Virus record (IMG/VR): IMGVR_UViG_3300010354_000069 | Location: 8,244-72,243 of that record | Length of the DNA: 64,000 nucleotides | Origin: a virus | Strand: one strand, 5' to 3' | Shown: positions 543 to 38,300 of the stretch, piece by piece | Layout: every line of letters begins with the position of its first letter | Position numbering within the stretch: position 1 is the stretch's first letter | Notes under the pieces: generated by a model | Seen by the model: only the letters and a program-made list of their open reading frames with translations | The model's database searches: none | Told to the model about the DNA's origin: nothing | Program-made: the position numbers and the translations under genes

Positions 543-1805
543 ATGACTGTGAAAGCAGTAGAACTAAAAAACCAAGCTGTCCTTACACTGCTTCGCCGGC
601 AACCCTTCATGTTTCACCTGATCACTCAGCTACGCTATGAAGAGACTGACAGTGTACCTACGGCTGCCGTCGTGTTTGACGGCCTGAATAACGAGAGCTG
701 GTTGAAGGTAAACCCAGACTTTGTAGAAAAGTTGTCTGCTCTCGAGCTTGAGGGCTTGCTGGCCCATGAACTCTTGCACGTGATGCACGAGCACACCCAC
801 TCACCGCACGTCCGTGAATGGGCTTGGAACATTGCAACTGATCTTGCAGTAAACACGGTTTTGCTCAAGCAGGGTTACGTGTTGCCGAGCGGTGGGCTTA
901 CCCCGCAAGGTGTTGCAGACAAACTCGCAGAGGATTCGGGACACCCGGTGGAAACCCCGCCCGAGCTGATGTCGGCTTACTGGTACTATCGCTGGCTTCA
1001 AGAGAATGCCAAGACCAACGAAGATAGCAAGGATAGTTGCGGTGGCGGCAAGTCAGAAACAGACGATACGCGGGACAACCAAGAGCAGGGTAACAATCAG
1101 TCTGGATCTTCACTGCAAGACCAAGCTGACCCACACGGTCACTGGTCTGACAGTGAAGGACAGCAGTCGCCCGAAGCTCGGGAACTTACCAAGCGCATGG
1201 TTGCCCAGCATGTGCAAAAGGCTAGCGAGAGCACTGCAGGTCGTCTTCCCGGTTATCTGGATTCTTTGGTCAATGAACTTTTGCGGGTGTTGGAAGAACC
1301 GTCCATGCGGTGGAACCAAGCCCTCAAGAAGTTCGTGGGTTTTAGAGCTGGCGTAAGTCTGAAGGCTAGCTGTGCCCGTACAAACAAGTACGGACAGATT
1401 CCCAAGATCCTGTTCAAGCCGTCTACCAAGTTCATGGTGTTCATTGATGTATCGGGTTCAGTTGACGACCAGCTGGCAGCAAAGTTCTTCAGTGAACTGG
1501 AAGGCTTGGCAAAGCAAGGCAATGAATTTGACTTGGCACAGTTTTCGATAGATGTCGTACCAATGGGAAGGTTTACCAAAAAACCTTATTACTCTCGCTT
1601 CATGAAAGGCGGCACTGACTTCAGTGCGCCATTCAAATTCATGCTGAAGAACAGGTTGTATAACAAGTACGACGGTGTAATAGTACTTACGGACGGAGAA
1701 GCTCCATGGCCAATGCCGGACGAACTTCTGCTACCATCCCTGTGGGTACTGAGCGCAGAACAGACTACCCCTGCACACATCAACACTATCGTCATCAAGG
1801 ACTGA
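543..1805 (+). CDS. DUF2201-like metallopeptidase plus vWA domain protein
   Basis: LAHELLH (HExxH), WNIATDLAVN, acidic linker, MIDAS DVSGS, GGTDF, LTDGE. Confidence 0.85.
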   Translation: MTVKAVELKNQAVLTLLRRQPFMFHLITQLRYEETDSVPTAAVVFDGLNNESWLKVNPDFVEKLSALELEGLLAHELLHVMHEHTHSPHVREWAWNIATDLAVNTVLLKQGYVLPSGGLTPQGVADKLAEDSGHPVETPPELMSAYWYYRWLQENAKTNEDSKDSCGGGKSETDDTRDNQEQGNNQSGSSLQDQADPHGHWSDSEGQQSPEARELTKRMVAQHVQKASESTAGRLPGYLDSLVNELLRVLEEPSMRWNQALKKFVGFRAGVSLKASCARTNKYGQIPKILFKPSTKFMVFIDVSGSVDDQLAAKFFSELEGLAKQGNEFDLAQFSIDVVPMGRFTKKPYYSRFMKGGTDFSAPFKFMLKNRLYNKYDGVIVLTDGEAPWPMPDELLLPSLWVLSAEQTTPAHINTIVIKD

Positions 1806-1816
1806 CAAATAACACC

Positions 1817-2080
1817 ATGCGGCGCTACACATTTGAATACGAAGTAACCACCGGTATCGATGACAGTTTTTTGTCTGGCGGTACGGTAATTGTAGAAGCA
1901 ACAAACCAAAACAACGCCGAGGTTCTTGGTCGCCGCAGAGTCCAAGAAACGGACAGGTATTGCGACTCGAGCATGGACCCTGTAATCACACTTACTCTGG
2001 AATCGGTAGAGGAAACGATAGATGTCTCAGCAGAGCCCGGCTCGAGTCTGCAAGCAAGCCAAGGAGTTGTATCCTACTGA
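1817..2080 (+). CDS. Hypothetical protein
   Basis: ATG at 1817 in the frame of ORF 1706..2080, filling the gap between the vWA and ATPase genes. Confidence 0.6.
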   Translation: MRRYTFEYEVTTGIDDSFLSGGTVIVEATNQNNAEVLGRRRVQETDRYCDSSMDPVITLTLESVEETIDVSAEPGSSLQASQGVVSY

Positions 2081-3191
2081 TACGCTCCTAAGGACGCTGC
2101 TTTACAGCAGAGCCTGCACCATAAAGAACCTGGATAATCCGGCAATCAACCCGGCCAGTATTGTAGTCAATGTCCAAGGTCACGCCGGCGTCGGCAAGAC
2201 TGCCATGATTCAGCAGTTAGCGCGAGACCTCAGAATTGGTTACGAAATTCTAAATGTCGGCGGCGTCACTGACGTCGCCGAAATCTTTGGTATCAGCCAC
2301 GTGAACCAGCTCACCGGGCGAACCGAAGCTACTCCGCCAGCTTGGTGGCCTCTGGACGAGCACAGCGAAGGTATCATCAACATCGATGACCTGACTCGTG
2401 CGCTTCCCCACGTCATTCAAGCGCTGCAGCAGTTCATCAACACGAGAAAGTTTCACAATCTGGTGCTGCCCAAGGGTTGGACCATTGCGGTCACCACCAA
2501 CCCGGACGACGGCGACTACAACGTGACGTCGGTGGACAACGCCTACGAGACGCGACTGGTCACCCTCGTCTACAACAGACCAGAAGAAGTGTTTCTCGAG
2601 CAACTCGAGAAGCAGGGCGTAGACGACATGGTCGCCAACTTCTGGCAGGTGCACCGTGAGCAACTCCGCATGCCCAGGTTGGAGCAAAAAGCACCGAAGG
2701 CCAACGACCGTACGCGCATGATCTTCAACCACCTGTACCCGTATTTGGCTAACGACCAAGATGCGCTGATTGCTACGGGTTCTGCGCTATTTGGCTACGA
2801 GTGGACTCAGGTGTTTCTGAGCTTTCAGAAGAACGATGACCAGCCGTTGAACCCCGACGAGATTCTGGAAATCTATGTCAATGACAGCAGCCTGAAGCAA
2901 ACCACCGAAAGGTACTTTGCTCAGGGCCGAAACGATTTGCTCAAGGTAAGTACTGAAAGATTGGTCCACCGCATGCGACAGGTCGTTGCTCTTACCAGTA
3001 ACAACTGGAAGAATATCTCTGCATTTCTGACAGATTTGCCACAGGATCTAGGATTTCATATGTATATGTCTTTGGTTCAGACAGGACAGCCGTCAGCTGA
3101 TTTGTTCAGAGCCAAGCTTATGGAATTCCCCGAACTTGCCACAAACTTTGTCAAACTTGCTGAAAGTATTCCAAAGGTAAGAAAGGAATAG
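2022..3191 (+). CDS. MoxR-like AAA+ ATPase
   Basis: Walker A GHAGVGKT, Walker B-like IINIDDLTRA, TTNP; adjacent to the vWA gene. Confidence 0.85.
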   Translation: MSQQSPARVCKQAKELYPTDTLLRTLLYSRACTIKNLDNPAINPASIVVNVQGHAGVGKTAMIQQLARDLRIGYEILNVGGVTDVAEIFGISHVNQLTGRTEATPPAWWPLDEHSEGIINIDDLTRALPHVIQALQQFINTRKFHNLVLPKGWTIAVTTNPDDGDYNVTSVDNAYETRLVTLVYNRPEEVFLEQLEKQGVDDMVANFWQVHREQLRMPRLEQKAPKANDRTRMIFNHLYPYLANDQDALIATGSALFGYEWTQVFLSFQKNDDQPLNPDEILEIYVNDSSLKQTTERYFAQGRNDLLKVSTERLVHRMRQVVALTSNNWKNISAFLTDLPQDLGFHMYMSLVQTGQPSADLFRAKLMEFPELATNFVKLAESIPKVRKE

Positions 3192-3201
3192 GAGACCAGT
3201 C

Positions 3202-3423
3202 GTGTCTGAGTGGAACCGTAATCGTTATGAGATGCAGCCTCATAATTTCAACGAAAAGTTCGGACCAAAGACCGCCGGCCACCCTACAGTAGGGCATCCC
3301 TGTGCCAAGTGCCGAGTACCGCTGGAATCCGGTGACTACACTACGCTGAACCCGGTGGACAACTACTCTGTAGAAGTCCACTGGGACTGCATCAACCCGA
3401 AGATGAAAAAGAAGAAGCAATGA
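3202..3423 (+). CDS. Small Zn-finger-like hypothetical protein
   Basis: CAKC...HWDC; AGGAG SD before GTG. Confidence 0.6.
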   Translation: MSEWNRNRYEMQPHNFNEKFGPKTAGHPTVGHPCAKCRVPLESGDYTTLNPVDNYSVEVHWDCINPKMKKKKQ

Positions 3424-3596
3424 CTCTGTTCGAAGACCTTTGTGAGCAACCAGATCCAATAGGTGTTTTGGCACGGGCTTGCAGTACCCTTGAAGAGCTT
3501 TATGAGCACTTGGACATACTGCTTATCAACGAGCCCAATCATCCACACTACATCGAACTGCTTATGCTCAAGACTGACATCGAGCGGACCTTGTAG
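3420..3596 (+). CDS. Hypothetical protein (58 aa, not in ORF track)
   Basis: ATGA overlap with upstream gene; MTLFEDLCEQPDPIGVLARACSTLEELYEHLDILLINEPNHPHYIELLMLKTDIERTL. Confidence 0.6.
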   Translation: MTLFEDLCEQPDPIGVLARACSTLEELYEHLDILLINEPNHPHYIELLMLKTDIERTL

Positions 3597-3599
3597 CGT

Positions 3600-3861
3600 C
3601 CTCGCGCGCACGCGCGCGGTCCAGCTATTGGTGAACTTCCCCCTAACTACTGCGTCCCCTCTCCCTCCTCTCCCCCAAAGCGGCGTTTCATAGGCAAGTA
3701 GCCATGCAGCGGCCAACCTTGGCGCACTTTACGTGCACGGAACAAGGGTAGAGGGGACGCAGAGCCGGTGCGGCCGCACCGGGGAGGAGTTGGATTTCCA
3801 GCTATTGGAGCCACTTCCACTACTGCGTTCTCTGCGTCCCCACGCCTTAACGCAGCAGCAT
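3600..3861 (-). ncRNA. Putative structured RNA (RNA2) with two imperfect direct repeats and an internal anti-repeat
   Basis: Repeats at 3621-3662 and 3798-3843; inverted copy at 3749-3764; palindrome CCGGTGCGGCCGCACCGG at 3765-3782; downstream of a promoter; no credible ORF. Confidence 0.5.
3621..3843. repeat. Imperfect direct repeat pair CCAGCTATTGG..ACTTCC..ACTACTGCGT..CCCC
   Basis: Copies at 3621-3659 and 3798-3841. Confidence 0.8.
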
Positions 3862-3866
3862 GCATG

Positions 3867-3894
3867 ACAATAGCATGCTCATTGCTCCTGTCAA
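3867..3894 (-). promoter_or_regulatory. sigma70-type promoter for RNA2
   Basis: Minus strand TTGACA-16 nt-TATTGT with an extended -10 TG. Confidence 0.55.
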
Positions 3895-3897
3895 GTC

Positions 3898-4015
3898 AAA
3901 AAAAAAAGAAGCCGGAAGCTCAACCAATGTGGGGACACAGAGCTGGTAGTTATTAGACCACCAGAGCGGGGAGCTTCCGACTTCTCTTGTTGGAACCTTG
4001 TGAGGGCGTCCAACA
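3898..4015 (-). ncRNA. Putative ~115-nt small RNA (RNA1)
   Basis: Own promoter; 5' hairpin; long stem AGAAGUCGGAAGCUC/GAGCUUCCGGCUUCU followed by U10; no ORF. Confidence 0.7.
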
Positions 4016-4020
4016 ACTAA

Positions 4021-4049
4021 ATCCTACACAGTAGCCTAGAGTCTGTCAA
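4021..4049 (-). promoter_or_regulatory. sigma70 promoter for RNA1
   Basis: Minus strand TTGACA-17 nt-TAGGAT, preceded by TGTG. Confidence 0.75.
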
Positions 4050-4120
4050 CGCGTCTCGGTCGGTCATGGTTGCAGGTGGTTGGGAATGTTGCCGCCGTTG
4101 CTTGAAAAGGAGTCCAGCTA

Positions 4121-4438
4121 GTGGGTGGTGAAGAGTTGGGTGAGGCGGTTGGCAAAGTGCTGGACCAACTGGCTTCCGTTCTGGCAGACTATCTGCATGT
4201 TGAAAGCAAGCTTCAGGTGCACGCCCTCACGTGGACACCGGAAGCAACGTCAATTTACATTGACGATCCTCAGTTGGCCGGACACATCACACGTCGAGTC
4301 ACTACCGAACTTGGTGACATTCAGGTAGTTGTGGACCACGCAACCCGCGGCCCCGTATCAGTGGAACTTATCCAATGCCCAATATCGAATACACGCTCGT
4401 CAGCGATAACGACATTGAAGACGTTGTCCAGTACCTGA
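4121..4438 (+). CDS. Hypothetical protein
   Basis: AAGGAG SD before GTG; overlaps the polymerase start. Confidence 0.65.
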   Translation: MGGEELGEAVGKVLDQLASVLADYLHVESKLQVHALTWTPEATSIYIDDPQLAGHITRRVTTELGDIQVVVDHATRGPVSVELIQCPISNTRSSAITTLKTLSST

Positions 4439-6399
4439 GCGGGGAATCGCTGCTGGCGCTGGATACGGAAACGTACAGAACGACCAAACCCTATCCCAGA
4501 GCCTACGACCTGAAGACGGAAAACCGCTTGTGGATTTCCGATCCTTTCATCAACAACATTCGGCTGGTACAGATTCGGTCACGTGACAGCGAAAGCTTCA
4601 TCTTTGACCTGATGGAGCTTTCTGGCGCAAGCACTGAACGGCTTCAGTGGTTGCTGGGGCAAAAGCACATTACTTGGTTGGGGCACAACCTCAAATTCGA
4701 TTGGCGCATGATTGCCGTCAACCTGGAAGTCGAACTTGAGAAGGTTTGGGACACCATGCTGGCAGCGATCACCATCGGCTACGCAATTGGCGACGGTGCC
4801 ATGTGGTCAAGAGGTGTTGGCCTCAAAGATGTCTGTCGCGACTTTCTTGACGTCAAACTGGACAAGACGGAGCAGAACAGTAACTGGGGCGCCAAGGAAC
4901 TGACAGCAAATCAGTACCAGTACGCAGCAAACGACTTGCTTTACCTGTTCAAGCTCTATGACGTACTGATCAAGGCAATCGAAGAAGAGTATGACATGCT
5001 TGGTGGAGTGCAGTTGGAAATGGAGCTGCTTCCGGCAGTAGCAGCAATGGAAATTGCCGGAATCGATTTTGATCTTGATCTGTACTACCGAGTGCAGAAA
5101 GCTGCCAAAGCTTATATTCCCAAGCTGGAAGAAGAGCTTTGCAAGTTTATCGGATGGCCCATGATTGCAGTACCGCCTCTTGAGCGGATAAAGACTGGGC
5201 GTAACTGGAAACCAAACCCAAAAAGCTTTGACGGTGAAGCAAAGAGTCCTCTGGATTCAAACCCTTTCATGCTCAAAGCGTTTCGGGATAAAGGTGTGGA
5301 AGTCGAGAACTTGCAGGGAAAGCACTTGGAAGAGTTGTCGGACAAGTACCCAATCCTGAAAAAGTTCAGTGACTACAAGGATCTTACCAAGCAGCTTGGG
5401 ATAGCCTACGATGCTTGGGTACACCCACTTACGGGCCGTATTCATCCCGAATTCAACCAGTCAGGCGCCGCCACCGGTCGTTTCAGCTGCAATAACCCCA
5501 ACTTGCAGCAGGTTCCAAAAACGGAAATCACGGACCCTCAGACGGGTGACAAACTCTGCTACCGCTACTGCTTCATTGCTCCTGATGGCCAAGAACTGGC
5601 TTCAGCCGACTACTCGGGACAAGAGCTACGCGTCATGGCAGTACTGTCCGGCGATCCCAACCTGATTCACATCCACAAGAACGAACCCGACTACGTCGAG
5701 GATCCAACGGGCAAGCTGGATGAATATGGCAAACCGGCCATGGTGAAGAACATGGGTGCAGATGTCCACGCAATGAGTTGCGAGCTGGTGTATGGTTCAG
5801 CAGGTATTACCAGATGGAATGCAAAGACTACGCCCTACCCGGGACTATCGGGCAAGACGTACAGAGACGTCATCAAGACCGTTGTCTACGGGCTGGCCTA
5901 CGGCAAGACTGCACCTGGTCTGTCAAAAGACATGGGTATCAGCATCGATGAAGCGGAAAACATCATCGAGTCCTTTTTCAGACCCTACCGTGTCCTTCAC
6001 CAGTGGTTGGAAAAGGTCGGCAAAGCTGCCGACGATACGAGATTAAGCCGATACGGTATACCAGAAGCTGGTATTACTCGTTGGCGAATGGTAAACTCGG
6101 ACAGGCACGAAGACAAAGGTGCTTTGAATCGAGCCGGCAAGAACACCCCCATTCAAGGATGCAGCGCACTCATGATGAAGAAAGCTTTGTGCAGCCTGAG
6201 AACGGTTGTACGAGAAGCTGGTGGAACAGTATGCGCTACGATTCACGACGAAGTTCTCGTCAGATATCCTATCGAACTACGGGACCAAGTGATGGCAGCA
6301 ATCGACAAGGGCATGACCGAAGGATCCAACGTATTCCTCCGAAATGTTGTCAACGATAAGTACGGTGTCGGCTGCGCCAAACACTGGTCAAAGGATTAA
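4375..6399 (+). CDS. polA: Family A DNA polymerase with 3'-5' exonuclease domain
   Basis: Exo motifs ALDTET, GHNLKFD, YAAND; ATGRFSCNNPNLQQVP; motif A ADYSGQELR; motif B RDVIKTVVYGLAYG; NTPIQG; motif C IHDE. Confidence 0.95.
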   Translation: MPNIEYTLVSDNDIEDVVQYLSGESLLALDTETYRTTKPYPRAYDLKTENRLWISDPFINNIRLVQIRSRDSESFIFDLMELSGASTERLQWLLGQKHITWLGHNLKFDWRMIAVNLEVELEKVWDTMLAAITIGYAIGDGAMWSRGVGLKDVCRDFLDVKLDKTEQNSNWGAKELTANQYQYAANDLLYLFKLYDVLIKAIEEEYDMLGGVQLEMELLPAVAAMEIAGIDFDLDLYYRVQKAAKAYIPKLEEELCKFIGWPMIAVPPLERIKTGRNWKPNPKSFDGEAKSPLDSNPFMLKAFRDKGVEVENLQGKHLEELSDKYPILKKFSDYKDLTKQLGIAYDAWVHPLTGRIHPEFNQSGAATGRFSCNNPNLQQVPKTEITDPQTGDKLCYRYCFIAPDGQELASADYSGQELRVMAVLSGDPNLIHIHKNEPDYVEDPTGKLDEYGKPAMVKNMGADVHAMSCELVYGSAGITRWNAKTTPYPGLSGKTYRDVIKTVVYGLAYGKTAPGLSKDMGISIDEAENIIESFFRPYRVLHQWLEKVGKAADDTRLSRYGIPEAGITRWRMVNSDRHEDKGALNRAGKNTPIQGCSALMMKKALCSLRTVVREAGGTVCATIHDEVLVRYPIELRDQVMAAIDKGMTEGSNVFLRNVVNDKYGVGCAKHWSKD

Positions 6400-6411
6400 G
6401 GAACAAAACCG

Positions 6412-7524
6412 ATGTACATCAATGTAGCCAGCGCCAGTGCTTTCGGAAAGAAGCTGGCGCTGGCCAACGCTTCGCTGAACGCAAAAGGCGAAACCAATCC
6501 CATCTGCGGAAGCATGATGCTGTCTACCGGTGCTGATGGCTTGGCGGTTACAGTTGCAAACACCAGCTCGCATCAGCTGAAACTGCACGCTCCAGCCCAC
6601 GTCAACATTCCGGGTTCGGTGCTTATTCCTGGCGATCACTTCACCAAAATCATCAACCGGCTTGGGGATCGTAGCGCGTCTTTAAAGGTCGAGAACAACC
6701 AGCTGGTTGCCATCACGTCTGACAACGACGTCTACAAGTTCGACCTGTTCCAAGGCGAAGCTGAAGACTTTCCGGTGGACAGTGACATTCCGCCGGTAGG
6801 TGCCGTAGTGGACGCAGACGGTTTCTCGGAAGCCTTGAAATCCGTACTCACAGCGGCGCTGGACGCCGAGCAGGACATCATCTTCAAGGCCGAGAACAAC
6901 ACGCTGTCCATCTACACCTCGGATTATCTGACTACTAAAAGCCGCACTCAACTGGTAAGTCAGAACTTTCCTTTCAGCTTCAGCGTACCGCGCAGTACTG
7001 TGGCAGCCGGGCGCATTCCTGACTGGTCCGGACCGGTTCAGATTCACGTGCGGTCTGATAAGGTGGTGCTTTCCCAAGGCGAAGAACATCTGATGATTCG
7101 TCGCGTGGGTCAGGCGGGGGACATCCAAACGATTGAAGAAGTACTTGGAGTTCAAGCTATTGGCCGTCTTGTTGTCAGTAGGCAGCAGCTTCAGTCAAAA
7201 GTCCACATCGTGGCCATTGGCAAGCAAACGTGTACGCTACAAGTCAAAGGCAAGAGCGAGAAGAACCTTCTGATTGAAGCGGAAAACGCCGGTGTTGGTG
7301 GGCACAAACAGGTAATTGCCATTCAAGGCAGCATTACTGGTGTGACAAGCAGCGTCAAAGTCGATGTCTCGCTGCTTGAAAAGGCGCTTAAGACTGTAGA
7401 TGGCGATGACTTGCTAGTCGACTATGTAGACTACACGGGAGATGGCAGCAGCATCAGCTTGCGGTTGGCTAATGACGCCAATCCTGAAAAGAAGCAAACG
7501 TTGTTGTTGCCTCTTCAGAGCTAG
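6412..7524 (+). CDS. dnaN: DNA polymerase III beta-clamp-like protein
   Basis: 370 aa; NPICGSMML, PGSVLIPG..F.KII, EDFP; next to the polymerase. Confidence 0.7.
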   Translation: MYINVASASAFGKKLALANASLNAKGETNPICGSMMLSTGADGLAVTVANTSSHQLKLHAPAHVNIPGSVLIPGDHFTKIINRLGDRSASLKVENNQLVAITSDNDVYKFDLFQGEAEDFPVDSDIPPVGAVVDADGFSEALKSVLTAALDAEQDIIFKAENNTLSIYTSDYLTTKSRTQLVSQNFPFSFSVPRSTVAAGRIPDWSGPVQIHVRSDKVVLSQGEEHLMIRRVGQAGDIQTIEEVLGVQAIGRLVVSRQQLQSKVHIVAIGKQTCTLQVKGKSEKNLLIEAENAGVGGHKQVIAIQGSITGVTSSVKVDVSLLEKALKTVDGDDLLVDYVDYTGDGSSISLRLANDANPEKKQTLLLPLQS

Positions 7525-14167: not shown

Positions 14168-14280
14168 AGATTGACGAGGACCACGTTGAAGTAAGTATTA
14201 CTGAAGAAGTAGTACTCGTTCTATTTGGTCTTTTACTTGCAAGTACTCTTGTACTATACTTGACAGTATATGGGGCTTGA
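14164..14280 (+). CDS. Small membrane peptide (38 aa, not in ORF track)
   Basis: ATGA overlap; MKIDEDHVEVSITEEVVLVLFGLLLASTLVLYLTVYGA. Confidence 0.5.
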   Translation: MKIDEDHVEVSITEEVVLVLFGLLLASTLVLYLTVYGA

Positions 14281-14992
14281 CCTTAGTAACTGGCGGCAAT
14301 ACCTAGGTGTGCTGCACGTGGGCACATTGTGGAATATTCAGCGCCGTGGTGCTGGTGGCAGCTCTAAGTACCCTGGAAACTTCGTTCCTGAAATTCCGCG
14401 CAACCTCATGCTGCGCTTTACAGAGGAACAAGACACGGTAGTAGATCTGTTTGCCGGATCGGAAACCACGGCTGATGTCTGTGCCGAGTTGAACAGGCAC
14501 TACGAAGGATGCGACCTACGGCCGTATAGTCCTCGTACAGCGCAAGGCGATGCCAGATCTTGGCAGCCTCAGCAGAAAGCACAGCTTGTAATTCTGCATC
14601 CGCCATACGCCAATATCATCAACTACAACGATAAGCTGCAACCCAACAGCATGGATTTGTCATTGGAGCCGGAAGACTTTCTTGACGCGTTTAGCCATGT
14701 TGTCTACAACGCAGTCAGCATGACTAAACCCGGTGGTTACATTGCCCTTGTCATGGGAGACCTGTACAAAAGCGGCGAGTACTACCCACTTGGTTTCAAG
14801 TCCATGGAATTGCTACGACTACACCCAGAACTACTGTTGAAGGGTACGGTCGTAAAAAACTTTGGTGACGAAGTAAAGAACAAAGGTCGCTTCAAAAACC
14901 TTTGGTTCTACCGAGCGCTAAAAAACCGCTTGTTCGTTCTCGAGCACGAATACGTGTTCGTATTCAAGAAGAAAGACTACAAACGCAAGTGA
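14270..14992 (+). CDS. DNA amino-methyltransferase (N4C/N6A)
   Basis: YPGNFVPEI, VVDLFAGSET, LHPPY, KPGGY, HEYVFVFKK. Confidence 0.85.
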   Translation: MGLDLSNWRQYLGVLHVGTLWNIQRRGAGGSSKYPGNFVPEIPRNLMLRFTEEQDTVVDLFAGSETTADVCAELNRHYEGCDLRPYSPRTAQGDARSWQPQQKAQLVILHPPYANIINYNDKLQPNSMDLSLEPEDFLDAFSHVVYNAVSMTKPGGYIALVMGDLYKSGEYYPLGFKSMELLRLHPELLLKGTVVKNFGDEVKNKGRFKNLWFYRALKNRLFVLEHEYVFVFKKKDYKRK

Positions 14993-15801
14993 CCCAAATG
15001 CTTCACGGTAATCGTGAGCTGATGGTTGCAAGCACGGGCGGCGCAAAGCTGCTGGTTATGTCAGACGGTGAAATTCCGGAAACGGAGTTCATCGGCCTGT
15101 GGCATCGACGCAAGCTAAAACCCGAACCTATTGCAATCCTCAACCCACCCACCAAACCCTCCAAGGATTTCAAACCTGTTGCTGGTCATTTCCTGCTGTT
15201 TGATCAGGAACACAAACCGTACAAGGACGGCCTTACCAAGGAATGGTCAGCTTGGGCTCGCTCTAACAAAGTAGTTGTAACTACACTGCGAGAAGTACGC
15301 CCTGAACTGATCTATCAGTCTTTGATCGGCGGCGTTTTTGACATCACGTTCAGCGAAGAAGCAGCTGAATGGTACGTCCGCGTAGTAGGCACCAGCCTGA
15401 TGCGGCAGCAGTGCGAAATGGACAAGCTGCAAATGTGCGGTATTGACCAAGTTGACCTTGAAACTGCAGTGCGCGTTATCGGCGGTGCCGAAGACGTCAA
15501 AGCCGAGCGCATTCTCAAAGCACTGGGTACGGCAAAAGCCTGTGCGCTGGTGCTGGATGTGACGGCAAACAACGCCTACAGGTTGTTTACCTACTTAGAG
15601 ATTCCTCTGCGCAACCGCAAGAGTCCATGGCTGATCGCCTTGCTGGCCTTGCGGCGCGCAATGGAAATCAAGACTCTGGATTCGCAAAGTGCGCTGCAAC
15701 TGTTTGTACAGTACTGCTACCAAGCAAAGCGCAAAGGAGATGACTTAGGCCCTATGACAGACATACTGCGAATCGCCCGCTTGGATACTAGCCGTGGATA
15801 A
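14989..15801 (+). CDS. DNA polymerase III delta (HolA)-like clamp-loader subunit
   Basis: FSEEAAEWYVRVVGTSLMRQQCEMDKL...VDLETAVRVI resembles the delta lid domain; start uncertain (GTG 14989 or ATG 14998). Confidence 0.55.
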   Translation: MTQMLHGNRELMVASTGGAKLLVMSDGEIPETEFIGLWHRRKLKPEPIAILNPPTKPSKDFKPVAGHFLLFDQEHKPYKDGLTKEWSAWARSNKVVVTTLREVRPELIYQSLIGGVFDITFSEEAAEWYVRVVGTSLMRQQCEMDKLQMCGIDQVDLETAVRVIGGAEDVKAERILKALGTAKACALVLDVTANNAYRLFTYLEIPLRNRKSPWLIALLALRRAMEIKTLDSQSALQLFVQYCYQAKRKGDDLGPMTDILRIARLDTSRG

Positions 15802-21612: not shown

Positions 21613-21803
21613 TTGTGACAGAAAACGAGTACTGGCAACCTGCCAGACGCGGTGAGGTAGCGTGTACTCACGGTGTAGGACACCCACTACCAAGGCAACG
21701 CGATCCAGTACACGGCTGTGACGGTTGTTGCAGCCGTGAAGATTTTCCGGGACGAAGAGATGAGCAACCCACCAAAAACAAAGAAACTGATAGGTCTGGA
21801 TGA
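21609..21803 (+). CDS. Small Cys/His-rich protein
   Basis: CTHGVGHP...HGCDGCC; start codon uncertain. Confidence 0.5.
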   Translation: MIVTENEYWQPARRGEVACTHGVGHPLPRQRDPVHGCDGCCSREDFPGRRDEQPTKNKETDRSG

Positions 21804-22518
21804 AGTAGGTTGGGGTGCCGTAGCGGGTCCGATGGTAATCTGTGCTACCTACGTTCCTACTGAGCATTGGGACCTTCTTCGGTCTTGGGGCTTTCGAGAC
21901 ACAAAAAGACTTGGCAGCAAGCTGAAGTTTACAAACCACAAGCGTCTGCGCGTGTCCGATCACATAGGCGAAGCCTTGGCACACCGCCTGGACGACACGG
22001 AAGAAAGCCTGGCAAGCTGGTGCATTGTGCCGGTTGACCCAATTACCATTGATTTGCTAACACCAGCCGTTGCCAAGAACCGCGCGTACAGACGAGCAGT
22101 AATGATGATGCTGGCTGCAAATGGTTGGGGCATGGATGAAGTTGAAGTCTTGGTTGACGGCAAGTTTCCTGCAAAGTTACTGCCTAAAGAAATAGAGCAG
22201 GACACTATCCCTACGGCCGATGCGCTAGTACTGCCCGCAGCGGTAGCCAGCGTGCTAGCCAAAGCTTATCGAGACCCGTACATGCGCAAGCTCGGCACAC
22301 TGTACCCCGCGTTTGGTTTTGACAAGAACAAAGGCTACCCCACCAAGGAACACATGGATATCTTGCTCAGGCATGGTCCAATCAAGGGAATTCACCGAAC
22401 CCACTACCTCAAGAAATGGCTGATGAACTACTATGCTCGTACAGCCCCTAGCAAGAAACCCCCACTACCCCGTTGGCTGCACGAGTCCGGATTTCTGTCC
22501 GAAGGCTATGGCGCCTGA
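21760..22518 (+). CDS. rnhB: Ribonuclease HII
   Basis: GLDEVGWGAVAGPMV, RDTK.L, VDG, ASVLAK..RD, KGYPT.EH, IHR. Confidence 0.92.
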   Translation: MSNPPKTKKLIGLDEVGWGAVAGPMVICATYVPTEHWDLLRSWGFRDTKRLGSKLKFTNHKRLRVSDHIGEALAHRLDDTEESLASWCIVPVDPITIDLLTPAVAKNRAYRRAVMMMLAANGWGMDEVEVLVDGKFPAKLLPKEIEQDTIPTADALVLPAAVASVLAKAYRDPYMRKLGTLYPAFGFDKNKGYPTKEHMDILLRHGPIKGIHRTHYLKKWLMNYYARTAPSKKPPLPRWLHESGFLSEGYGA

Positions 22519-31821: not shown

Positions 31822-32313
31822 ATGCAGTTTTACGTCAGCGCTTTAGGACCTATAGACACAGGCCGCCCGCTTCACGCCGACGCCGGCAAAACCTTCAACC
31901 ACGTAGGCATTCCTATCTGGTTTACTAGGGGTAGTTTGCACCGTGCTGTACACGTTCTAAATGGACCCTACCACGAACCTACTGGACTTTTCGTGGTGCA
32001 ACCTAACGAAGTGCTGGTGTACTTTGAGGTAAAGCAGCCCCCAGCAGGTTCTTTGCAAGAGCAGACCATGGGACTGCGCCCGGTTACCTACGCAATTCTT
32101 AGTGTCGACCGCAACTTCGTGCATAGCAACAGTTTGCTGTATCAATCAGTAGATCCTGATGCAGACTTTGAAAAAGACGACGATATCGCCGTCTGGTTTG
32201 GAATGACCTTTCCGGCAACTATAGTAGGTAGATTCAGAAAGCCAACGGATACTTTTCAGCCTCCTAAAGAAACTCGTGGCCACATGTTGAAGGACTCCAA
32301 CCTCTACAACTAG
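31822..32313 (+). CDS. Hypothetical protein, last gene of the + arm
   Basis: AAGGA SD; stop overlaps the giant gene stop. Confidence 0.7.
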   Translation: MQFYVSALGPIDTGRPLHADAGKTFNHVGIPIWFTRGSLHRAVHVLNGPYHEPTGLFVVQPNEVLVYFEVKQPPAGSLQEQTMGLRPVTYAILSVDRNFVHSNSLLYQSVDPDADFEKDDDIAVWFGMTFPATIVGRFRKPTDTFQPPKETRGHMLKDSNLYN

Positions 32314-35300
32314 TTGGCTCGCTTTCGAGCAGCACTAGGAATATCTCTACTACCGCTGCGACCCTGTCTGTGATAGTCACGGTCCAGCGTGTCATCCTTG
32401 CCCTTCTTGCCAGCATGCTCTTGATGGATGACCACCTTCTTGCCCTGTGGGTCAACCTCTACCTTAGAAGTACGGCGCTGAGAGTGGTCTTTAGTGCTAC
32501 CCGTCGGCACATCCTTTGCCCCGCTCTTGACACCACCGTGATTAGCCTTGGTATCGACAACAACAGTTGCATTCTTTGACTTGGCGGGGGCTTCTTTACC
32601 ATAGAACACGTTTTGAATGAACTCATCAACGTTTTCAATAACGTCATCGAGCACGTTACGTTCATACTTGTCGGATACCACCGCTTCGACTTCGATTGAA
32701 CCGCTTGAAGAAACGGTACCAGGTAGCGCTTGTTTGCTTGTGCTTGAAACACGTGCAAGCTCTTTAGTGCTACGAACGCTTAGTTCAGCAGCGGATTTTC
32801 CAACACGATACTTGGCGTCAATATGAGCATCAACAGATTTTACAAGGTGCTCGTTAATTTTTCCGTAAGCCCAAATATTTGCAAGAACAATACCAATACC
32901 TGCAAAGGTTCCTGCGATAGCTCCAGGAAGAGCACCAACACCCCCAGCTAGTGTACCGGCGGCAGCGCCTGTCAAAGCCGTCTTTACAACGAAACCAGCA
33001 GCGGCACTAGCCAAGCCAAGAATGCCTATAGTGCTAAGACCGGCCACACCGTGCCCCAAAGCACGCTCTCTAGCAACTCTGTCAGTACCCGCCTCCCTGT
33101 ATTCAACAAAGGTCTTGGATGACTCTACGACCACCATCAAAGGCAACGCAGCTTTGCTAGCTACTGCGGCAAGTTTCGGTGCCCACGTTGTAGCACCAAA
33201 TCGCTTTGTAACAAGAGGAACCATGCGTCCGTAGCCTTCAAGTGCTGCTTGTACAGCAAACAATCCAGTGCTTGCCTTAAAGAAGACTTCCTGCTCAAAA
33301 GGCATTTCGTACCCTTGTTTATGCAGCTTTGCCTTTTGGTCTTCAAAATCCATCCAACTTTTTACAGACATGGCAAGCATGAATAGAGGATTGCCAAGCT
33401 GTTGGCTGAACTCATAACTCTTCATGATCGATGTGTTGGCTAGCCGTTGTTGGTAGATATCTCTGCGGATTCGAGCCTCTGCCTGTTCTTGGCGCGCCAT
33501 AGGACGCTCTCTGGAAGTCTTGTCCAACCTTGAACGAATCTCTTCCTTGCGCTCCACTGTACGTTGAATTCGCTCTTCAGCCTCCTGCAACCGCTCAAGA
33601 GGTTTGCCGGCAGTACCCAAGCGTGCCCAAATATCTTGCTTCAATTGTTTTTGACGGTTTATTTCTTCCTCACGCTCAATCAGGGTTTGCAAAGGACGCT
33701 CACCCCGTGTTGCCTCCGTACGGCTACGAACTTCTTCGCGTCTAGCTTCTGCTACCGACTCGACTGCTCTGCGCTGCTTACGGGCGGCAATGAGCTCGCG
33801 CTGCCTATTTGCCAGAGTTTCTTGGTCAAGGCTATTCAAGCTGCGAGGCGTGGGGTTCTTGCGGAAGTCCCTGACAGCCCTACCCAGAACTAAGCGGCTT
33901 TCTTCATCCGCGGGTACGAAAGTACGCTTGGTGTAGCTAAAAGCTTGTGGAGTCTTTACTGGCTCGTCCGTCACGCTACGCTGAGCGCTCACAACGGGAT
34001 TGATGCTTGAAGCAGCAATGTCTTTTGATAGACGTGCTACTACTGCAACAAGCGATCTACCAGCTTTCAAGTATCTGTGTACGGCTTTTTCAACCAACTC
34101 GTCTGGATTTACAACGATTAGCTGGTCTACGTTACGCTCAACAGCACGCCAGCCTCTACCCAGTAACATAGAATAGCCGGCATAACCAAGACTGGCAATT
34201 GTGCGTGCAAACAATCTGTCAGTAAAGAGGTAAATGTCCCTAGCACCTGTAGATGCAGCCCTGTAAGCAGCTTCTCTAGCTACGATGTATGTCCTACCGT
34301 CACGTTCAATAGTGGTATTGCCAAGGTGCTTAAGAGCGTCACCGTTATCAAACATGCTAGGCTTGTTATACTTGTCGACAAGCAATTCAGCCGCTATGCC
34401 CGCAAATAGCTCTCTAATACCTGTGGACATGAGCTCATGAATAGTAAAAGAAGTAATACCTGGTTTTTCTGATCTACGTCGTACTTCCTCAAGAGTACGC
34501 TCTGCGTTAGAGCGCAGTTCTAGGTAGGTCTGCTCTGCAAGTTTTCCGTTAGGGTCTTGAACACCCATTTCCCTGTACATGGACTTGATGATTTCTCGCC
34601 ACTCCTGCTCATAAACTTCAGGAGCTGCCCTGAAATCCATGATTCTTGCGCCTGGCTTAAAACCGAAAGTCTGAACGTAGTGTGCGCTGCTGTAGTGCCC
34701 CCAACCGCTAGGTTTAATTCCTCGAACACCAGAGTAATCTGTGGCATCGTTTCTGGAAGGTGTCACGTAGAACCCGGCCCCTTCGGCCCAAGTGCCAGAT
34801 ACGTCCAACTCTGGAATTCCGTAAGGACGATAGTCCTGACCGTGGTAGTAAGCCCTGCTTGTAAGCCTGTCGGATATAGCTTGCTTTTCCGCAGTAAAAT
34901 CAACTACACCAGAGCGGGTTGTGTGTGCATCGCGCGCAAGTGTTGAAGTTTCTGGCGCCGCTGTACGAAGCTCCATGTCAAGTAGTTCGTGCGGTAGCAG
35001 ATTTGAAGCACTTTCAGTCTTTGGCAAAGACCTCCACTCGTATTTGGCCCTCTGTTCAGCCGCTCGAGTATCTGCCCGCATTTTCAGCATCAGCCTTAGC
35101 ATGCGAGCTTCTTTTTGAGCAAACCTGATGAGACTGCTGATAGCTCCAGGTTGACTGCTTGCTCTTTGCAACCGGTCTCTGTACGTCTGGTAAGCAAGAC
35201 GGCCAAGAACCGGTGCGGTTGCAAGTAGACTAGTGGCCAGAGTAGCAAAGTGCTCGGGCGTAATCAGAGTGCCAAAACCACTGGAAGCTTCTGCGGGCAT

Positions 35301-38300
35301 TGTAGCGGCTGCAACCAAACCCAAGCCAGTAAAAGCAATGGACATTAGTCGTCCGGAGCGCCCGCCAAGAATGCCTTTACGCTCTGCCGCTCGTTTAGCC
35401 AAACGGCTTACACGGTCTGCGGTACTAGCAGCAACGTGTGAGTAAGGCTCTATATTCCTTGAATACTCGGCGGGTATTACTTCTGGTAGGCTGGTCTCAG
35501 AAATATTGAGAACCTTCGCTATCTTAGTTTTATAGATGTTTATAAGCTCTACAGCTTTGTCCATCTCAACAGAATCTTGTTTAGGAGCAAATTCTTGAAC
35601 TAACCGCTTGGTATAAAAGTCAAGTCGTAAATCCATATCTCTGGTAATGTTACCAGCTGCATGCTTGCGTAGAATAGCATTTTTAATAAGGTCAACGCGC
35701 CTGTCTGTAAAGTATATCTGTTCGTCAGTAAGTCCAGCTGCATCCCTGAGGAAGTTGTACATAGTACGCTGTTCTGGATAAGCAGAGAAAACACTAGTAG
35801 TAGAGTTTACGTTAATACGCAACCTGCGGATAAGCTCTGGCATTACATTTATTGCTCTAGTTTCTACAGCAGCTTCTTCAAGGGCTAGTTCAGGCGCCGT
35901 AGCGTAATGCCCTTTTATATCGTAATCAAAGCCGAATCTAGCTAGAGCGCGCCTACGCGGGCTGTACTCGTGATGCACTTCGTGAGAAAGGATATGAAGA
36001 GTCGTTAACAAGCGTTCCAAAGACTTTTCTCTATATTCAAATGAAGCTACGCCAAGTTTATTTCTACTCTGACGTGCGATATCTAGTAGATACGGAGTAT
36101 ACTTATTTCTAACATTGATGTAAGCCATCATACCGCGCGGAGTGTGCATACCATCCCAGCTAAAAGGCATATTGGTCACTCCAATATCATTCAGCAGAAT
36201 AACAGGAAGGGGTAGGATTCCTCTTCTTTGTTCTCTAGGTAAAGTACTTCTAACAGCCTTTGCAGTTTCGTACAAAGCAAATTGCATAGCAGTAAGTTGT
36301 TTTGCAGTATCAACAAAGTGTCTTAGGCTTGCAACCGATCTTGCACTTATAGTTTTCAAAAAATCTATTGTTTGTCTAGGTTTCAACACAAGGCTCGCAG
36401 TAAGCGCAGTAGCGGTAGCCCCAAAAACACCAGCTGCAGCAAATTTCAGGTAAGGTACTAAAGTGTTAATCAGACTAGGGTAATGCGTAGTAATTTTACT
36501 AAGGTCGGGCTCCACCACAGTTTCAATCCTGAAGTGGGTTGCCGCTTCTGCAGGCATTCCAGCGGCTAGTGCAAGGCCTACACCAAGTAACCCTAGTGCC
36601 AAAGGCTTGGCACCACGCTTGAGGCTTTGACGAGCCTTCTCAAGAAGCTTTGGTTGTAGAGCTTTGAGTGTGCTGCGAACGTAAGTGAAACCTCTTGCTA
36701 CACTGACAGAAGATTTGTCTATGGTAGTAGTAAACAAATGGTGCGGTTTACGAGCAGAAGCAATAATGTCAGAAGAAGCTCTGTACCTGAGTAGCTGTAC
36801 TGTGTATTCACTTAAATTTGCTAAGTTCAAAGCCCCCAACCGCTTTATACGTTTACCTGGAACAACAGCATAAACAGTTGTTTCTCTCGCTTCTTTGGAG
36901 TCCATTAATACAAGCTGACCATTTTCGTTGAAAATGGTATTACGTACTCCCGCGTATCCTTGGCTTACAATACTGTCTCTAAGAGCTGTATGAACTGCAA
37001 CCTCAGAGTTGAAGTTTGGTGGTAGACCTTCAGCAGCAGTAAAACGAGATGTCATAAACTCTACTGCGCTCTTATAAAAGTATTCTACATTGTGTTTGTT
37101 GTCGGGAGTATCAAGAGCGTTAAGCAGACGCAGGAGCTCCGCATTGAACTTACTGCTAGTTTTTTCACTATCATTTACGTGAAGCAGCATAGTCTCAAAA
37201 GTGTGCTGCAACATTGTGCGTACTTCAGTCTTGTACACTTCAGCAGGCTGAGCAAAGTCTATAAACTGTGCAGTAGGGTTTAGCCTTACTTTTTGAACGA
37301 TACCAAACTGCTTTTTGGCCTTTGTTACAAGGGCTCGTACAGTCTTGCCTGCTGAGTTTACAGTAAGACCCGCGTAGTCAAGGGCTTGGCCAACCGTTTC
37401 AGCCATGTAGTAACCACGGCCGCCCCACCAAGAGCCGTGTAAAGAGGCTTCAGGAATACCAGAAGGTGCATGAGTTTGACCGTGGTAGTACGTACGGTTG
37501 GTAATCTGCCTTGAGATATCTTTCTTCAAAGTGGTGAAATCCAAAGCGGTGCGCGTAGGCTCGGCCTCGGAAGCGGGAACAACACTGGACAGAGGTTGAT
37601 TCTTATTGTTACCCCCAAAAAGCTTCTTGACTCCTTCCCAGCCAAGAATTCCGGCTGCAGAGAAACCAAGCTGACTCATCAGCAAAGCGTTGTCTGCGAG
37701 CGATGTGACGTGATGCCCAAACGGTAGCGTAGCTGCTTCAGCGGGCATTCCAGCGGCTAGAGCCAGACCTGTTCCTACCAGCAGGCCGAAGATACCGGAA
37801 GTGCGCTGCCCCCGCTCCCGCCTAGCTTTCTCTAGCTCAGCATCAATAACCGTCACCATAGAACTATCGTTTAAAATTTCGAAAGAAGGTAAGTCACGTC
37901 GTGCAATAGAGCTCAAAGACCTGTGTAGCCTATCAAGAGCTTTTAAACTTTGTTTATAGCTGCCTACAGGACGTCTAATGCTAAATCTGCTGCTATAGGA
38001 AGAAGGTACAAACACGTTTACAGCGTAGTTATTGATAACCTTTCTTATTCTTGTAGCTTGGCTCCGGTTAAGGCGAAACTTCTCTGCAATTTTTTCACTT
38101 AGTAGTTTTACACGATCCTCTTCGACATACAAAGTATCGCTTGTAATATCTGTAAGTGAAAGCAAGGCCCTTGTAAACATTCTTTGAAACTTATAGGTAG
38201 CGACTAAAGGAGCGGTACTTACAGTATGTCCAGTTAGCCTTCCTACAAATTCCCTAAGATGCTCTACGCTACCAATCTCAACAGTAGCTTCTTCTAAGGC

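Follow-up and report, generated by a model that had tools for sequence, protein, structure and literature searches.

The DNA analysed here, referred to as the window, is a stretch of 64,000 nucleotides (nt) comprising bases 8244-72243 of the 72,243-base-pair (bp) IMG/VR virus record IMGVR_UViG_3300010354_000069, which is estimated to be 35% complete. The carrier is an uncultivated freshwater jumbo phage. Within its plus-strand replication module, the intergenic stretch 3597-4120 holds a minus-strand module (3597-4049) in which two tandem promoters of the host type are predicted to give two transcripts, RNA1 and RNA2 (Table 1). An earlier sequence-only reading of this DNA had placed the locus upstream of polA in a phage that encodes an RNase HII, and Pfam confirmed both genes.

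Relatives of the locus, L016 and L096, were retrieved with an alignment of polA homologues as query; a search for related loci with a single polA protein as query gave no match. L016 is a metagenome contig of 5.3 kilobases (kb), collinear with window 1686-7022 at 79.4% identity. L096 lies in G001, a complete phage record of 205,180 bp with terminal repeats, with a polA of 53% identity. Further polA relatives, P0002-P0012, are 48-62% identical. Contigs of four DNA runs matched to the locus supply two more strains, X2 and X3, which are known through the differences listed for them, with 33 further differences lying outside that list; no RNA run was found to contain the sequence. The independent lineages compared are therefore three: the window, L016 and G001.

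Two predicted minus-strand RNAs

Both minus-strand promoters named in the sequence-only reading were recovered by a promoter scan, which returned four sites in 1.6 kb where 0.8 were expected. In the 72-kb record only four sites have at least 10 of 12 sigma-70 matches, and P1 and P2 are two of these. Both P1 hexamers are identical in L016, with a spacer that has diverged and is 1 nt longer; P2 there reads TTGACA-16-TATGTT, with an unchanged -35 hexamer, TATGTT in place of TATTGT at -10, and again a diverged spacer. The promoter changes listed for X2, X3 and X4 all fall in spacers (for P1, at 4029, 4036 and 4038). In G001 the module has the order TTGACA-18-TAGGAT (at the place of P1), an RNA1-like unit with a terminator (RNA1'), TTGACG-18-TAGGGT (at the place of P2), an RNA2 homologue (RNA2') and, directly after it, a further promoter, P3'.

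RNA1 is predicted to fold into a 5' hairpin followed by a long terminator stem, which surrounds an inner hairpin and a free C-rich stretch. Its minimum free energy (MFE) is -52 kcal/mol (z = -6.7), and none of 200 shuffles folded as well. The consensus of window and L016 has 25 pairs, 5 of them changed on both sides, with covariation in the terminator stem (for example C-G to G-C at columns 37/112) and in the inner hairpin. In X2, the change A3990 to G in the terminator arm leaves a G.U pair. The terminator of RNA1' in G001 has a weak U-tract.

Folded on the minus strand, RNA2 reaches an MFE of -132.9 kcal/mol (z = -5.2), compared with -115.4 kcal/mol (z = -4.1) for the plus strand; the minus strand is better by 17.5 kcal/mol because many of the pairs are G.U. 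A covariance model built from window and L016 found a full-length RNA2 homologue in G001 at L131:3416-3680 (30.4 bits, E = 8e-8). Compared with L016, 7 of 73 pairs are compensated. When G001 was included, 97.5% of cells were paired and 22 of the 73 pairs had changed on both sides, a result reached by 0/500 shuffles, and slid controls of the three-sequence alignment gave 38-49% paired. A strain difference in the 5' hairpin likewise keeps its pair, G3856.U3822 becoming A-U in X3.

Conservation along RNA2 is uneven. The 3' domain (3659-3594) is identical to L016 at 66/66 positions and the 5' domain (3861-3777) at 77/85, while the centre (3776-3660) is identical at 61/114 with 5 gap columns and retains its stems. 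The GGAAGU loop of the 3' hairpin is retained in G001, and the G-tracts at element-2 are retained in both L016 and G001 despite differing sequence. The palindrome of 18 bp, the purine run and the terminal GC hairpin noted in the sequence-only reading are all present at their places (Table 1); neither strand has a U-tract after the GC hairpin. In strain X2, a 7-nt insertion is found at 3597, directly after the stop codon of the neighbouring 58-amino-acid (aa) gene and just outside the GC hairpin; this is the outer edge of the invariant 3' block of RNA2.

Coding readings of the same bases were considered and rejected. The 4-codon leader proposed earlier (MLLR at 3861) exists as a sequence, but it did not hold up as a functional leader: L016 has a counterpart that reads MPLR-stop, but X3 and X4 lack the stop (plus-strand 3847 T>G), so that the ORF is not conserved; it has no Shine-Dalgarno sequence, and its bases form the covarying 5' stem. 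A 72-aa minus-strand open reading frame (ORF) at 3865-3647 is cut short in L016 after 29 residues in common, and in X2 and X3 a 1-nt deletion at 3863 falls in its start codon (3865-3863). More generally, substitutions in RNA2 are stem-compensating and not third-position changes, which speaks against a small-protein mRNA. A possible pairing of RNA2 CCAAUAGCUGGAC with the start region of the 105-aa ORF (4112-4124, 1 mismatch) was also discarded, as the site is not kept in L016, X2 or X3.

Table 1. Coordinates of the two-RNA locus, its surroundings in the window, and the adjoining region of G001.
Feature	Position	Strand	Remarks
Plus-strand replication block	543-32313	+	contains the two-RNA locus
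polA	4375-6399	+	Pfam
RNase HII	21718-22518	+	Pfam
P1	4021..4049	-	sigma-70-type, TTGACA-17-TAGGAT, for RNA1; 10/12 matches
RNA1, ~115 nt (predicted)	3899..4014	-	5' end predicted from -10 hexamer, 3' end from U-run
RNA1 intrinsic terminator	3898..3991	-	arms 3991-3971 and 3921-3901 (inverted repeat I1), U10 at 3907-3898
RNA1 seed (anti-1), CUCUGUGUCCCCAC	3929..3942	-	14 contiguous pairs with element-1 at 3843-3830
P2	3867..3894	-	sigma-70-type, TTGACA-16-TATTGT, TG upstream, for RNA2
RNA2, ~265 nt (predicted)	3597..3861	-	5' end predicted; 3' end taken as just past GC hairpin
4-codon ORF (MLLR), AUG CUG CUG CGU UAA	3847..3861	-	judged no functional part
RNA2 5' hairpin, 11-bp stem, 19-nt loop	3819..3859	-	helix 1; 4/11 pairs changed both sides
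Element-1, GUGGGGACGCAGAG	3830..3843	-	in 5' hairpin loop; target of RNA1 and of the internal anti-element
Three-way junction domain	3786..3818	-	invariant between window and L016
18-nt palindrome CCGGTGCGGCCGCACCGG = hairpin H2	3765..3782	-	shortened stem retained in L016 and G001 (helix 6)
Anti-element (anti-2), CUCUGCGUCCCCUCUACC	3747..3764	-	pairs element-1 (12 bp) or element-2 (16 nt, 1 mismatch); repeats I5, I2
Variable central domain	3666..3746	-	enclosed by anti-2:element-2 helix; stems covary (helices 9-11)
21-nt purine run (3676-3656) ending in element-2 GGGGACGCAG (3659-3650)	3650..3676	-	
Conserved 3' hairpin, GGAAGU in loop	3622..3649	-	helix 12; 2 pairs changed both sides in G001
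GC hairpin, RNA2 end	3603..3618	-	helix 13; 6 nt from stop codon of convergent plus-strand gene
G001 third small promoter-terminator unit	L131:3687-3935		between module and tRNA array
G001 tRNA array, 32 genes	L131:3958-7783 (G001 83,958-87,783)	+	

Predicted pairing between the RNAs and refolding of RNA2

Exact copies of the internal repeat of RNA2 are confined, within the window, to this locus. GGGGACGCAG occurs exactly three times, all within 192 bp, at 3650-3659 (-), 3753-3762 (+, complement on the minus strand) and 3832-3841 (-); 0.08 copies would be expected, and three are reached in 0/100 shuffles. RNA1 contributes a fourth copy, with one mismatch, at 3931-3940 (+). When one mismatch was allowed throughout the window, 7 copies were found against 3.9 expected, a number reached by 13/100 shuffles and not significant; it is the clustering that stands out. 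The sequence-only reading had described two copies of one element on the minus strand with their complement between them, and this arrangement is as it was placed, the complement CUCUGCGUCCCCUCU lying at 3764-3750 (-) within the anti-element.

The exposed C-rich stretch of the predicted RNA1 is complementary to the G-rich element-1 in the loop of the RNA2 5' hairpin, and the anti-element within RNA2 is, by its sequence, a paralogue of that stretch. As had been proposed, RNA1 matches the upstream copy best: its free stretch gives -30.3 kcal/mol with element-1 and -24.2 kcal/mol with element-2. Intermolecular pairs were counted by a script anchored on the invariant GGGGAC/GUCCCC cores, MAFFT having misaligned the G001 seed; full-length duplexfold and cofold calculations of RNA1 with RNA2 ignore intramolecular structure or forbid kissing interactions. 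RNA1 and element-1 form 13-14 contiguous pairs in all three lineages, with offsets -1 to +11 paired throughout, and shuffled RNA1 seeds were as good in 0/300 cases in each lineage. The predicted recognition bases of the two RNAs change together between lineages: offset +6 is G.U in the window and L016 and A-U in G001, offset +7 is C-G in the window, G.U in L016 and G-C in G001, and offset +8 is A-U in the window and G-C in both relatives. In G001 the complementarity of RNA1' and RNA2' extends over 21 nt with one bulge (-45.5 kcal/mol), and a search of both strands of that whole genome returned the RNA2' loop as the best non-self target, at -45.8 kcal/mol against -36.4 kcal/mol for the next.

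The order of folding was predicted by folding growing RNA2 prefixes, and the same three steps were obtained in window, L016 and G001. Prefixes of up to about 100-115 nt fold into the 5' hairpin. A helix of 13-14 pairs between element-1 and the anti-element then takes its place, lasting from about 118 nt to 170-195 nt. As soon as the prefix includes element-2, the 5' hairpin is back and element-2 is the partner of the anti-element. The transient fold has an advantage of 8.4 (window), 7.7 (L016) and 14.5 (G001) kcal/mol in the 140-nt prefix; in full-length RNA2 the final fold is preferred by 20.1, 12.4 and 11.9 kcal/mol, respectively. The complementarity of element-1 and anti-element was reached by 1/300, 1/300 and 16/300 shuffles in the same order. 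In X2 and X3, C3834 in element-1 is changed to G together with G3760 to C in the anti-element, which turns the transient-helix pair C3834-G3760 into G-C. When element-1 was blocked, as it would be by bound RNA1, the anti-element was unpaired in the 170-nt prefix.

These predictions suggest the following mechanism. While RNA2 is being transcribed, the anti-element would first pair with element-1 and open the 5' hairpin; some 80-100 nt later element-2 would emerge and take over the anti-element, and the 5' hairpin would re-form. RNA1 bound to element-1 would remove the transient fold, leaving the anti-element free to capture element-2 as it leaves the polymerase. We therefore read RNA1 as a probable antagonist that acts in trans to set the co-transcriptional folding path of RNA2, since bound RNA1 would abolish the transient fold; we put the probability of this reading at roughly 0.6. 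RNA2 would then be the effector, and what is regulated would be how long its G-rich 3' segment, or else the C-rich anti-element, remains single-stranded. The core of the sequence-only reading, a single anti-element for which two element copies compete, is thus backed by covariation and prefix folding in three lineages, and the same two lines of evidence favour its suggestion that RNA1 would shift pairing to the downstream copy.

Several observations weigh against this reading. The transcript starts and ends of RNA1 and RNA2 are predictions, and only three independent lineages stand behind the covariation of the two RNAs. The G001 alignment was fitted to the model, and its pair counts are therefore biased towards structure. 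The architecture of RNA1 differs in G001, where covariance model R1 failed to find RNA1', which was located by reading the sequence. By loose duplex energy, the RNA1 stretch scores -30.1 kcal/mol with element-1 and -31.4 kcal/mol at two other places in the 72-kb record. In X3, the RNA1 stretch would lose one pair through the change U3939 to C, and the X2 change 3845 G to A breaks the loop mini-hairpin; both are uncompensated among the differences listed. For the predicted helix between anti-element and element-2, the support comes from MFE folds and the model-fitted alignment, and a shuffled C/U-rich segment matches the purine run as well in 123/300, 39/300 and 253/300 cases. Finally, the equilibrium fold of RNA2 is the same with or without RNA1, and any effect of RNA1 must therefore be kinetic.

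Gene setting and orientation of the module

The replication block begins with a DUF2201/VWA protein and a MoxR-type AAA ATPase, followed by two small ORFs, the locus and the 105-aa ORF; it continues with PolA, beta-clamp, UDG, SNF2 helicase, clamp loader and exonuclease, and it also carries another helicase, a DnaG-type primase, RNase HII, a UvrD-type helicase and ribonucleotide reductase. The pair at its head, a DUF2201 metallopeptidase/VWA-like protein and a MoxR-type AAA_5 ATPase (543-3191, +), is also kept in G001 (76.4-79.3 kb). G001 has the MoxR-type ATPase at 78.3-79.3 kb and polA at 93.75 kb, with the module between these two genes and encoded on their strand. The position between ATPase and polA is thus common to window and G001, and the orientation relative to the flanking genes is inverted, which indicates that the module works independently of its neighbours. 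It is also co-oriented with, and directly upstream of, an array of 32 of the 35 tRNA genes of G001; no tRNA or tmRNA gene was found in the window or in the 72-kb record.

The genes that border the locus are small. The 58-aa plus-strand gene at 3420-3596 differs from its relative mostly by synonymous third-position changes and is therefore taken to be real. A four-helix protein was confidently predicted for it, with a predicted local distance difference test score of 87; a structure search gave no PDB match at E <= 0.001, and no family could be assigned. A Rom-like role for this protein gains no support from that search. The conserved 105-aa ORF on the other side (4121-4438, +) has a GTG start behind AAGGAG and no Pfam or PHROG match, and it runs 64 nt into the start of polA in a different frame. 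Just 5' of this ORF and upstream of P1, a 60-nt block at 4039-4100 is largely kept in L016 and unchanged in X2 and X3 among the differences listed. It contains no recognisable sigma-70-type plus-strand promoter, and it may be a phage-specific promoter, the 5' untranslated region of the polA operon or an upstream element of P1.

Two observations concern the wider window. A minus-strand ORF of 5,866 codons (32310-49910) lies directly upstream of a terminase-like gene (49911-51890) and would encode a giant phage protein. The stretch 14278-15801 (+) was missed by a crude ORF caller; it reads as coding by eye, its L-H-P-P-Y-A-N resembles the PPY motif of DNA methyltransferases, and it shows DNA-level conservation with G001 110,595-110,888.

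In GenBank phages, blastn with the locus and with the G001 module gave no match, and no close cultured phage was found: the best tblastn identity for polA was 27%, and relatives of polA and the ATPase were at most 30% identical. Across IMG/VR, a scan with a 15-mer pattern returned 14 loci, taken as chance matches, a block-motif scan gave a single match to unrelated AT-rich coding sequence, and a scan with the 3'-domain motif returned G001 only. The block motif had 0 matches in GTDB genomes. With Rfam 15, 0 families reached the gathering score in the whole 64-kb window, and at E up to 10 the region 3000-4600 gave only chance-level matches to miRNAs and snoRNAs. The RNA1/RNA2 module is conserved within a lineage of uncultivated jumbo phages.

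Possible outputs and known RNA control systems

What the refolding of RNA2 would control can be read in several ways. The one we would tentatively place first is a trans-acting riboregulator pair, in which a protein, or mRNAs of host or phage, would be the target of one RNA and the other RNA would be the sponge or antagonist of the first; the C-rich stretch of RNA1 might act on G-rich ribosome-binding sites, for example, or the invariant loops of RNA2 on a protein, with the internal switch gating when the sponge sites open. Like a classical small RNA (sRNA), RNA1 has a strong promoter, leaves one stretch exposed and closes with a U-tailed terminator, and RNA2 carries two decoy copies of its target. 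Between phages of 79% identity, neither the loops nor any part of the 3' domain has changed, suggesting that a conserved partner exists outside the module, and the G001 module stands next to a tRNA array, in the company of other stable RNA genes. Both sRNAs and anti-sRNA sponges have been described in phages (PMC12197685, in the part covered). However, besides RNA2 no target stands out in the 72-kb record or in G001, where the other candidates are gapped, shuffle-like duplexes, and the flanks of the RNA1 stretch change together with RNA2, which would be unexpected for a seed constrained by many targets.

A regulator-and-sponge pair is at least as likely as the other output considered at length, an RNA-primed or RNA-activated replication origin. 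The module would then be an RNA-only origin or activator, with RNA2 as a pre-primer whose nascent G-tract forms an R-loop and RNA1 as the determinant of initiation frequency and replicon specificity, a proposal that we regard as doubtful. Without RNA1, element-1 would hold the anti-element, and the nascent G-rich tract would re-anneal to its C-rich template as a persistent hybrid, which the phage RNase HII or a host RNase H would process and PolA of the phage would extend; with RNA1, the freed anti-element would capture the G-tract and prevent the hybrid. Of the ColE1-like primer suggested in the sequence-only reading, the switch logic and the conserved G-tracts fit: the three-segment logic with its time window is as described for ColE1 RNA II (PMC11012335, in part), and the G-tracts of element-2 persist in three lineages despite differing sequence. 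The phage encodes PolA, RNase HII, clamp, clamp loader and helicases, and the module keeps its place between ATPase and polA in the replication block of window and G001 while tolerating inversion, as an origin would. In addition, the recognition bases of RNA1 and RNA2 covary between close strains, like replicon-specific incompatibility determinants (PMC3035462, in part). Unlike the ColE1 inhibitor, RNA1 is not antisense to RNA2, and cumulative GC skew has no turning point at the locus, either in the 72-kb record or in the complete G001, where the minimum is near 143 kb. Neither an AT-rich unwinding element nor iterons were seen in the sequence, the phage has its own DnaG-type primase, the G001 module heads the 32-tRNA array and looks like part of an island of stable RNA genes, and the stable final fold of RNA2 hides the G-tract in every case.

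The sequence-only reading had also offered an antisense-controlled attenuator, and leader, attenuator or antisense control is unlikely on the present evidence. The switch would decide between stop and read-through of transcription from P2, termination being intrinsic or Rho-dependent with the free C-rich anti-element as the Rho loading site, and read-through would enter the convergent plus-strand operon in the window (antisense interference) or the tRNA array in G001. The four-segment layout has the topology of classical attenuators and of P4 CI RNA with seqA/seqC (PMC4825925, in part). The anti-element region is indeed C-rich and G-poor, and in G001 the module is co-oriented upstream of the 32 tRNA genes, with no recognisable promoter in the short gap after the last hairpin. 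But no conformer combines a compact hairpin with a U-tract, and the scan finds no minus-strand terminator within RNA2: the helix of anti-element and element-2 encloses 81-90 nt (81 in the window) and is followed by UAGUUAGGGGG, without a U-tract. Nothing co-oriented lies downstream in window, L016, X2 or X3, where RNA2 meets the 3' end of the 58-aa plus-strand gene, and in G001 the promoter P3' intervenes directly after RNA2'. It is the missing compact terminator, the missing co-oriented gene in the window and the occurrence of both orientations that make attenuation unlikely, and conservation in both orientations further indicates a function independent of any downstream gene.

Most improbable of all is a DNA-level element, in which the RNA folds would be incidental and the repeats would be operators or iterons for a phage DNA-binding protein, namely four copies of GGGGAC(G/A)CAG in alternating orientation and two copies of CCAGCTATTGG that lie 177 bp apart in the window locus. 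The repeats are clustered with alternating orientation, and the flanking blocks are 100% conserved; yet changes between lineages preserve base-pair complementarity and not site sequence, the G.U pairs are consistent only with a minus-strand RNA, CCAGCTATTGG is absent from the G001 module, and promoters and a terminator frame the repeats as transcription units.

We regard the module as a self-contained pair of non-coding RNAs, a known kind of RNA-RNA control in a new RNA family. Textbooks describe RNA-controlled refolding of nascent RNA in small plasmids (ColE1, pT181) and in a handful of temperate elements (P4, P1). To our knowledge, it has not been described in large lytic-type phages, nor with an antagonist encoded on the same strand under its own promoter. 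The literature searched, including the covered part of a review of phage sRNAs (PMC12197685), contained no such module; the supplementary sRNA table of that review lay outside this coverage and may bear on novelty. Phages with polymerases of only 53% identity share the design, and the predicted folding sequence is the same in three lineages. The conserved design, the covarying recognition bases and the shared folding order together place the module among the better-supported candidate RNA switches in an uncultivated virus, and as a compact 0.5-kb cassette with host-type promoters it is directly clonable and testable. If its output is replication, it would provide a first handle on how a jumbo-phage lineage starts and limits DNA synthesis; it would also be a third independent case of ColE1-like control, following ColE1 itself and the marine RNA-based (MRB) plasmids; no earlier case would be from a phage, and none would have an inhibitor that is paralogous to an internal primer segment instead of antisense to the primer. 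If it is a riboregulator, it would add a new two-RNA architecture, a regulator with a self-gated target and decoy, to phage-host RNA biology.

Among known systems, ColE1 offers the closest logic. There, the RNA I of about 110 nt binds loops in the 5' part of a longer transcript within a limited time window and redirects downstream pairing (PMC11012335, in part). The present module has the same three-segment competition and, by prefix folding, the same kinetic character, with folds predicted to be decided during transcription, and RNA1 likewise would pair through an exposed stretch with the 5' part of RNA2, over 13-14 contiguous pairs. It differs in that RNA1 is not antisense but encoded upstream on the same strand, its complementarity to RNA2 spanning only 13-21 nt; no homology to the ColE1 RNAs emerged in sequence or structure, no Rfam family having matched, the carrier is a phage of about 200 kb and not a small plasmid, and no Rom-like protein was recognised. 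Of the persistent hybrid, RNase H cleavage and Pol I extension of ColE1, the possible counterparts here are the conserved G-tracts and the genes for PolA and RNase HII. The MRB plasmids represent a second, convergent origin without Rep that is run by two RNAs, the small one being a loop-loop (kissing) inhibitor and specificity determinant (PMC3035462, in part). Their RNAs come from opposite strands, whereas those of the module share a strand, and no sequence relationship was seen.

Same-strand regulators provide a second comparison. P4 CI RNA is a small RNA that pairs with two repeated sites (seqA/seqC) in transcripts of its own locus and controls replication functions (PMC4825925, in part). 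The stretch of RNA1 similarly pairs with two sites of its own locus, element-1 and element-2, at the energies given above. However, P4 CI is cut from its target transcript, whereas RNA1 has its own promoter and terminator but might also arise by read-through or processing; and the premature termination of P4 occurs upstream of co-oriented replication genes, whereas the next gene in window and L016 is convergent. In G001 co-oriented tRNA genes do follow the module, but behind a further promoter. The c4 RNA of P1/P7 is likened to the P4 CI type, and Rfam gave no match to any such family. IsrK of the Gifsy-1 prophage is a short terminated RNA that acts in trans on a longer RNA of the same locus, where it binds one strand of a helix and the freed partner forms another hairpin (PMC4825925, in part). 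RNA1 and RNA2 would follow this logic, with RNA1 as the antagonist in trans, but IsrK targets its own read-through mRNA, with translation of a downstream ORF as output, whereas RNA2 has no conserved ORF. Intrinsic attenuators of the pT181 or trp type have a terminator hairpin and a downstream gene on the same strand, both of which are missing in the window.

Among large lytic phages, T4 shows that replication can start from promoter-derived R-loops. The T4 origins use an AT-rich unwinding element, are not known to involve an antagonist RNA and have no known homology to the present module. T4 also carries the stable RNAs C and D, of unexplained function, beside its tRNA genes, and the position of the G001 module at the head of a tRNA array resembles that of these stable RNAs beside the T4 tRNA cluster.

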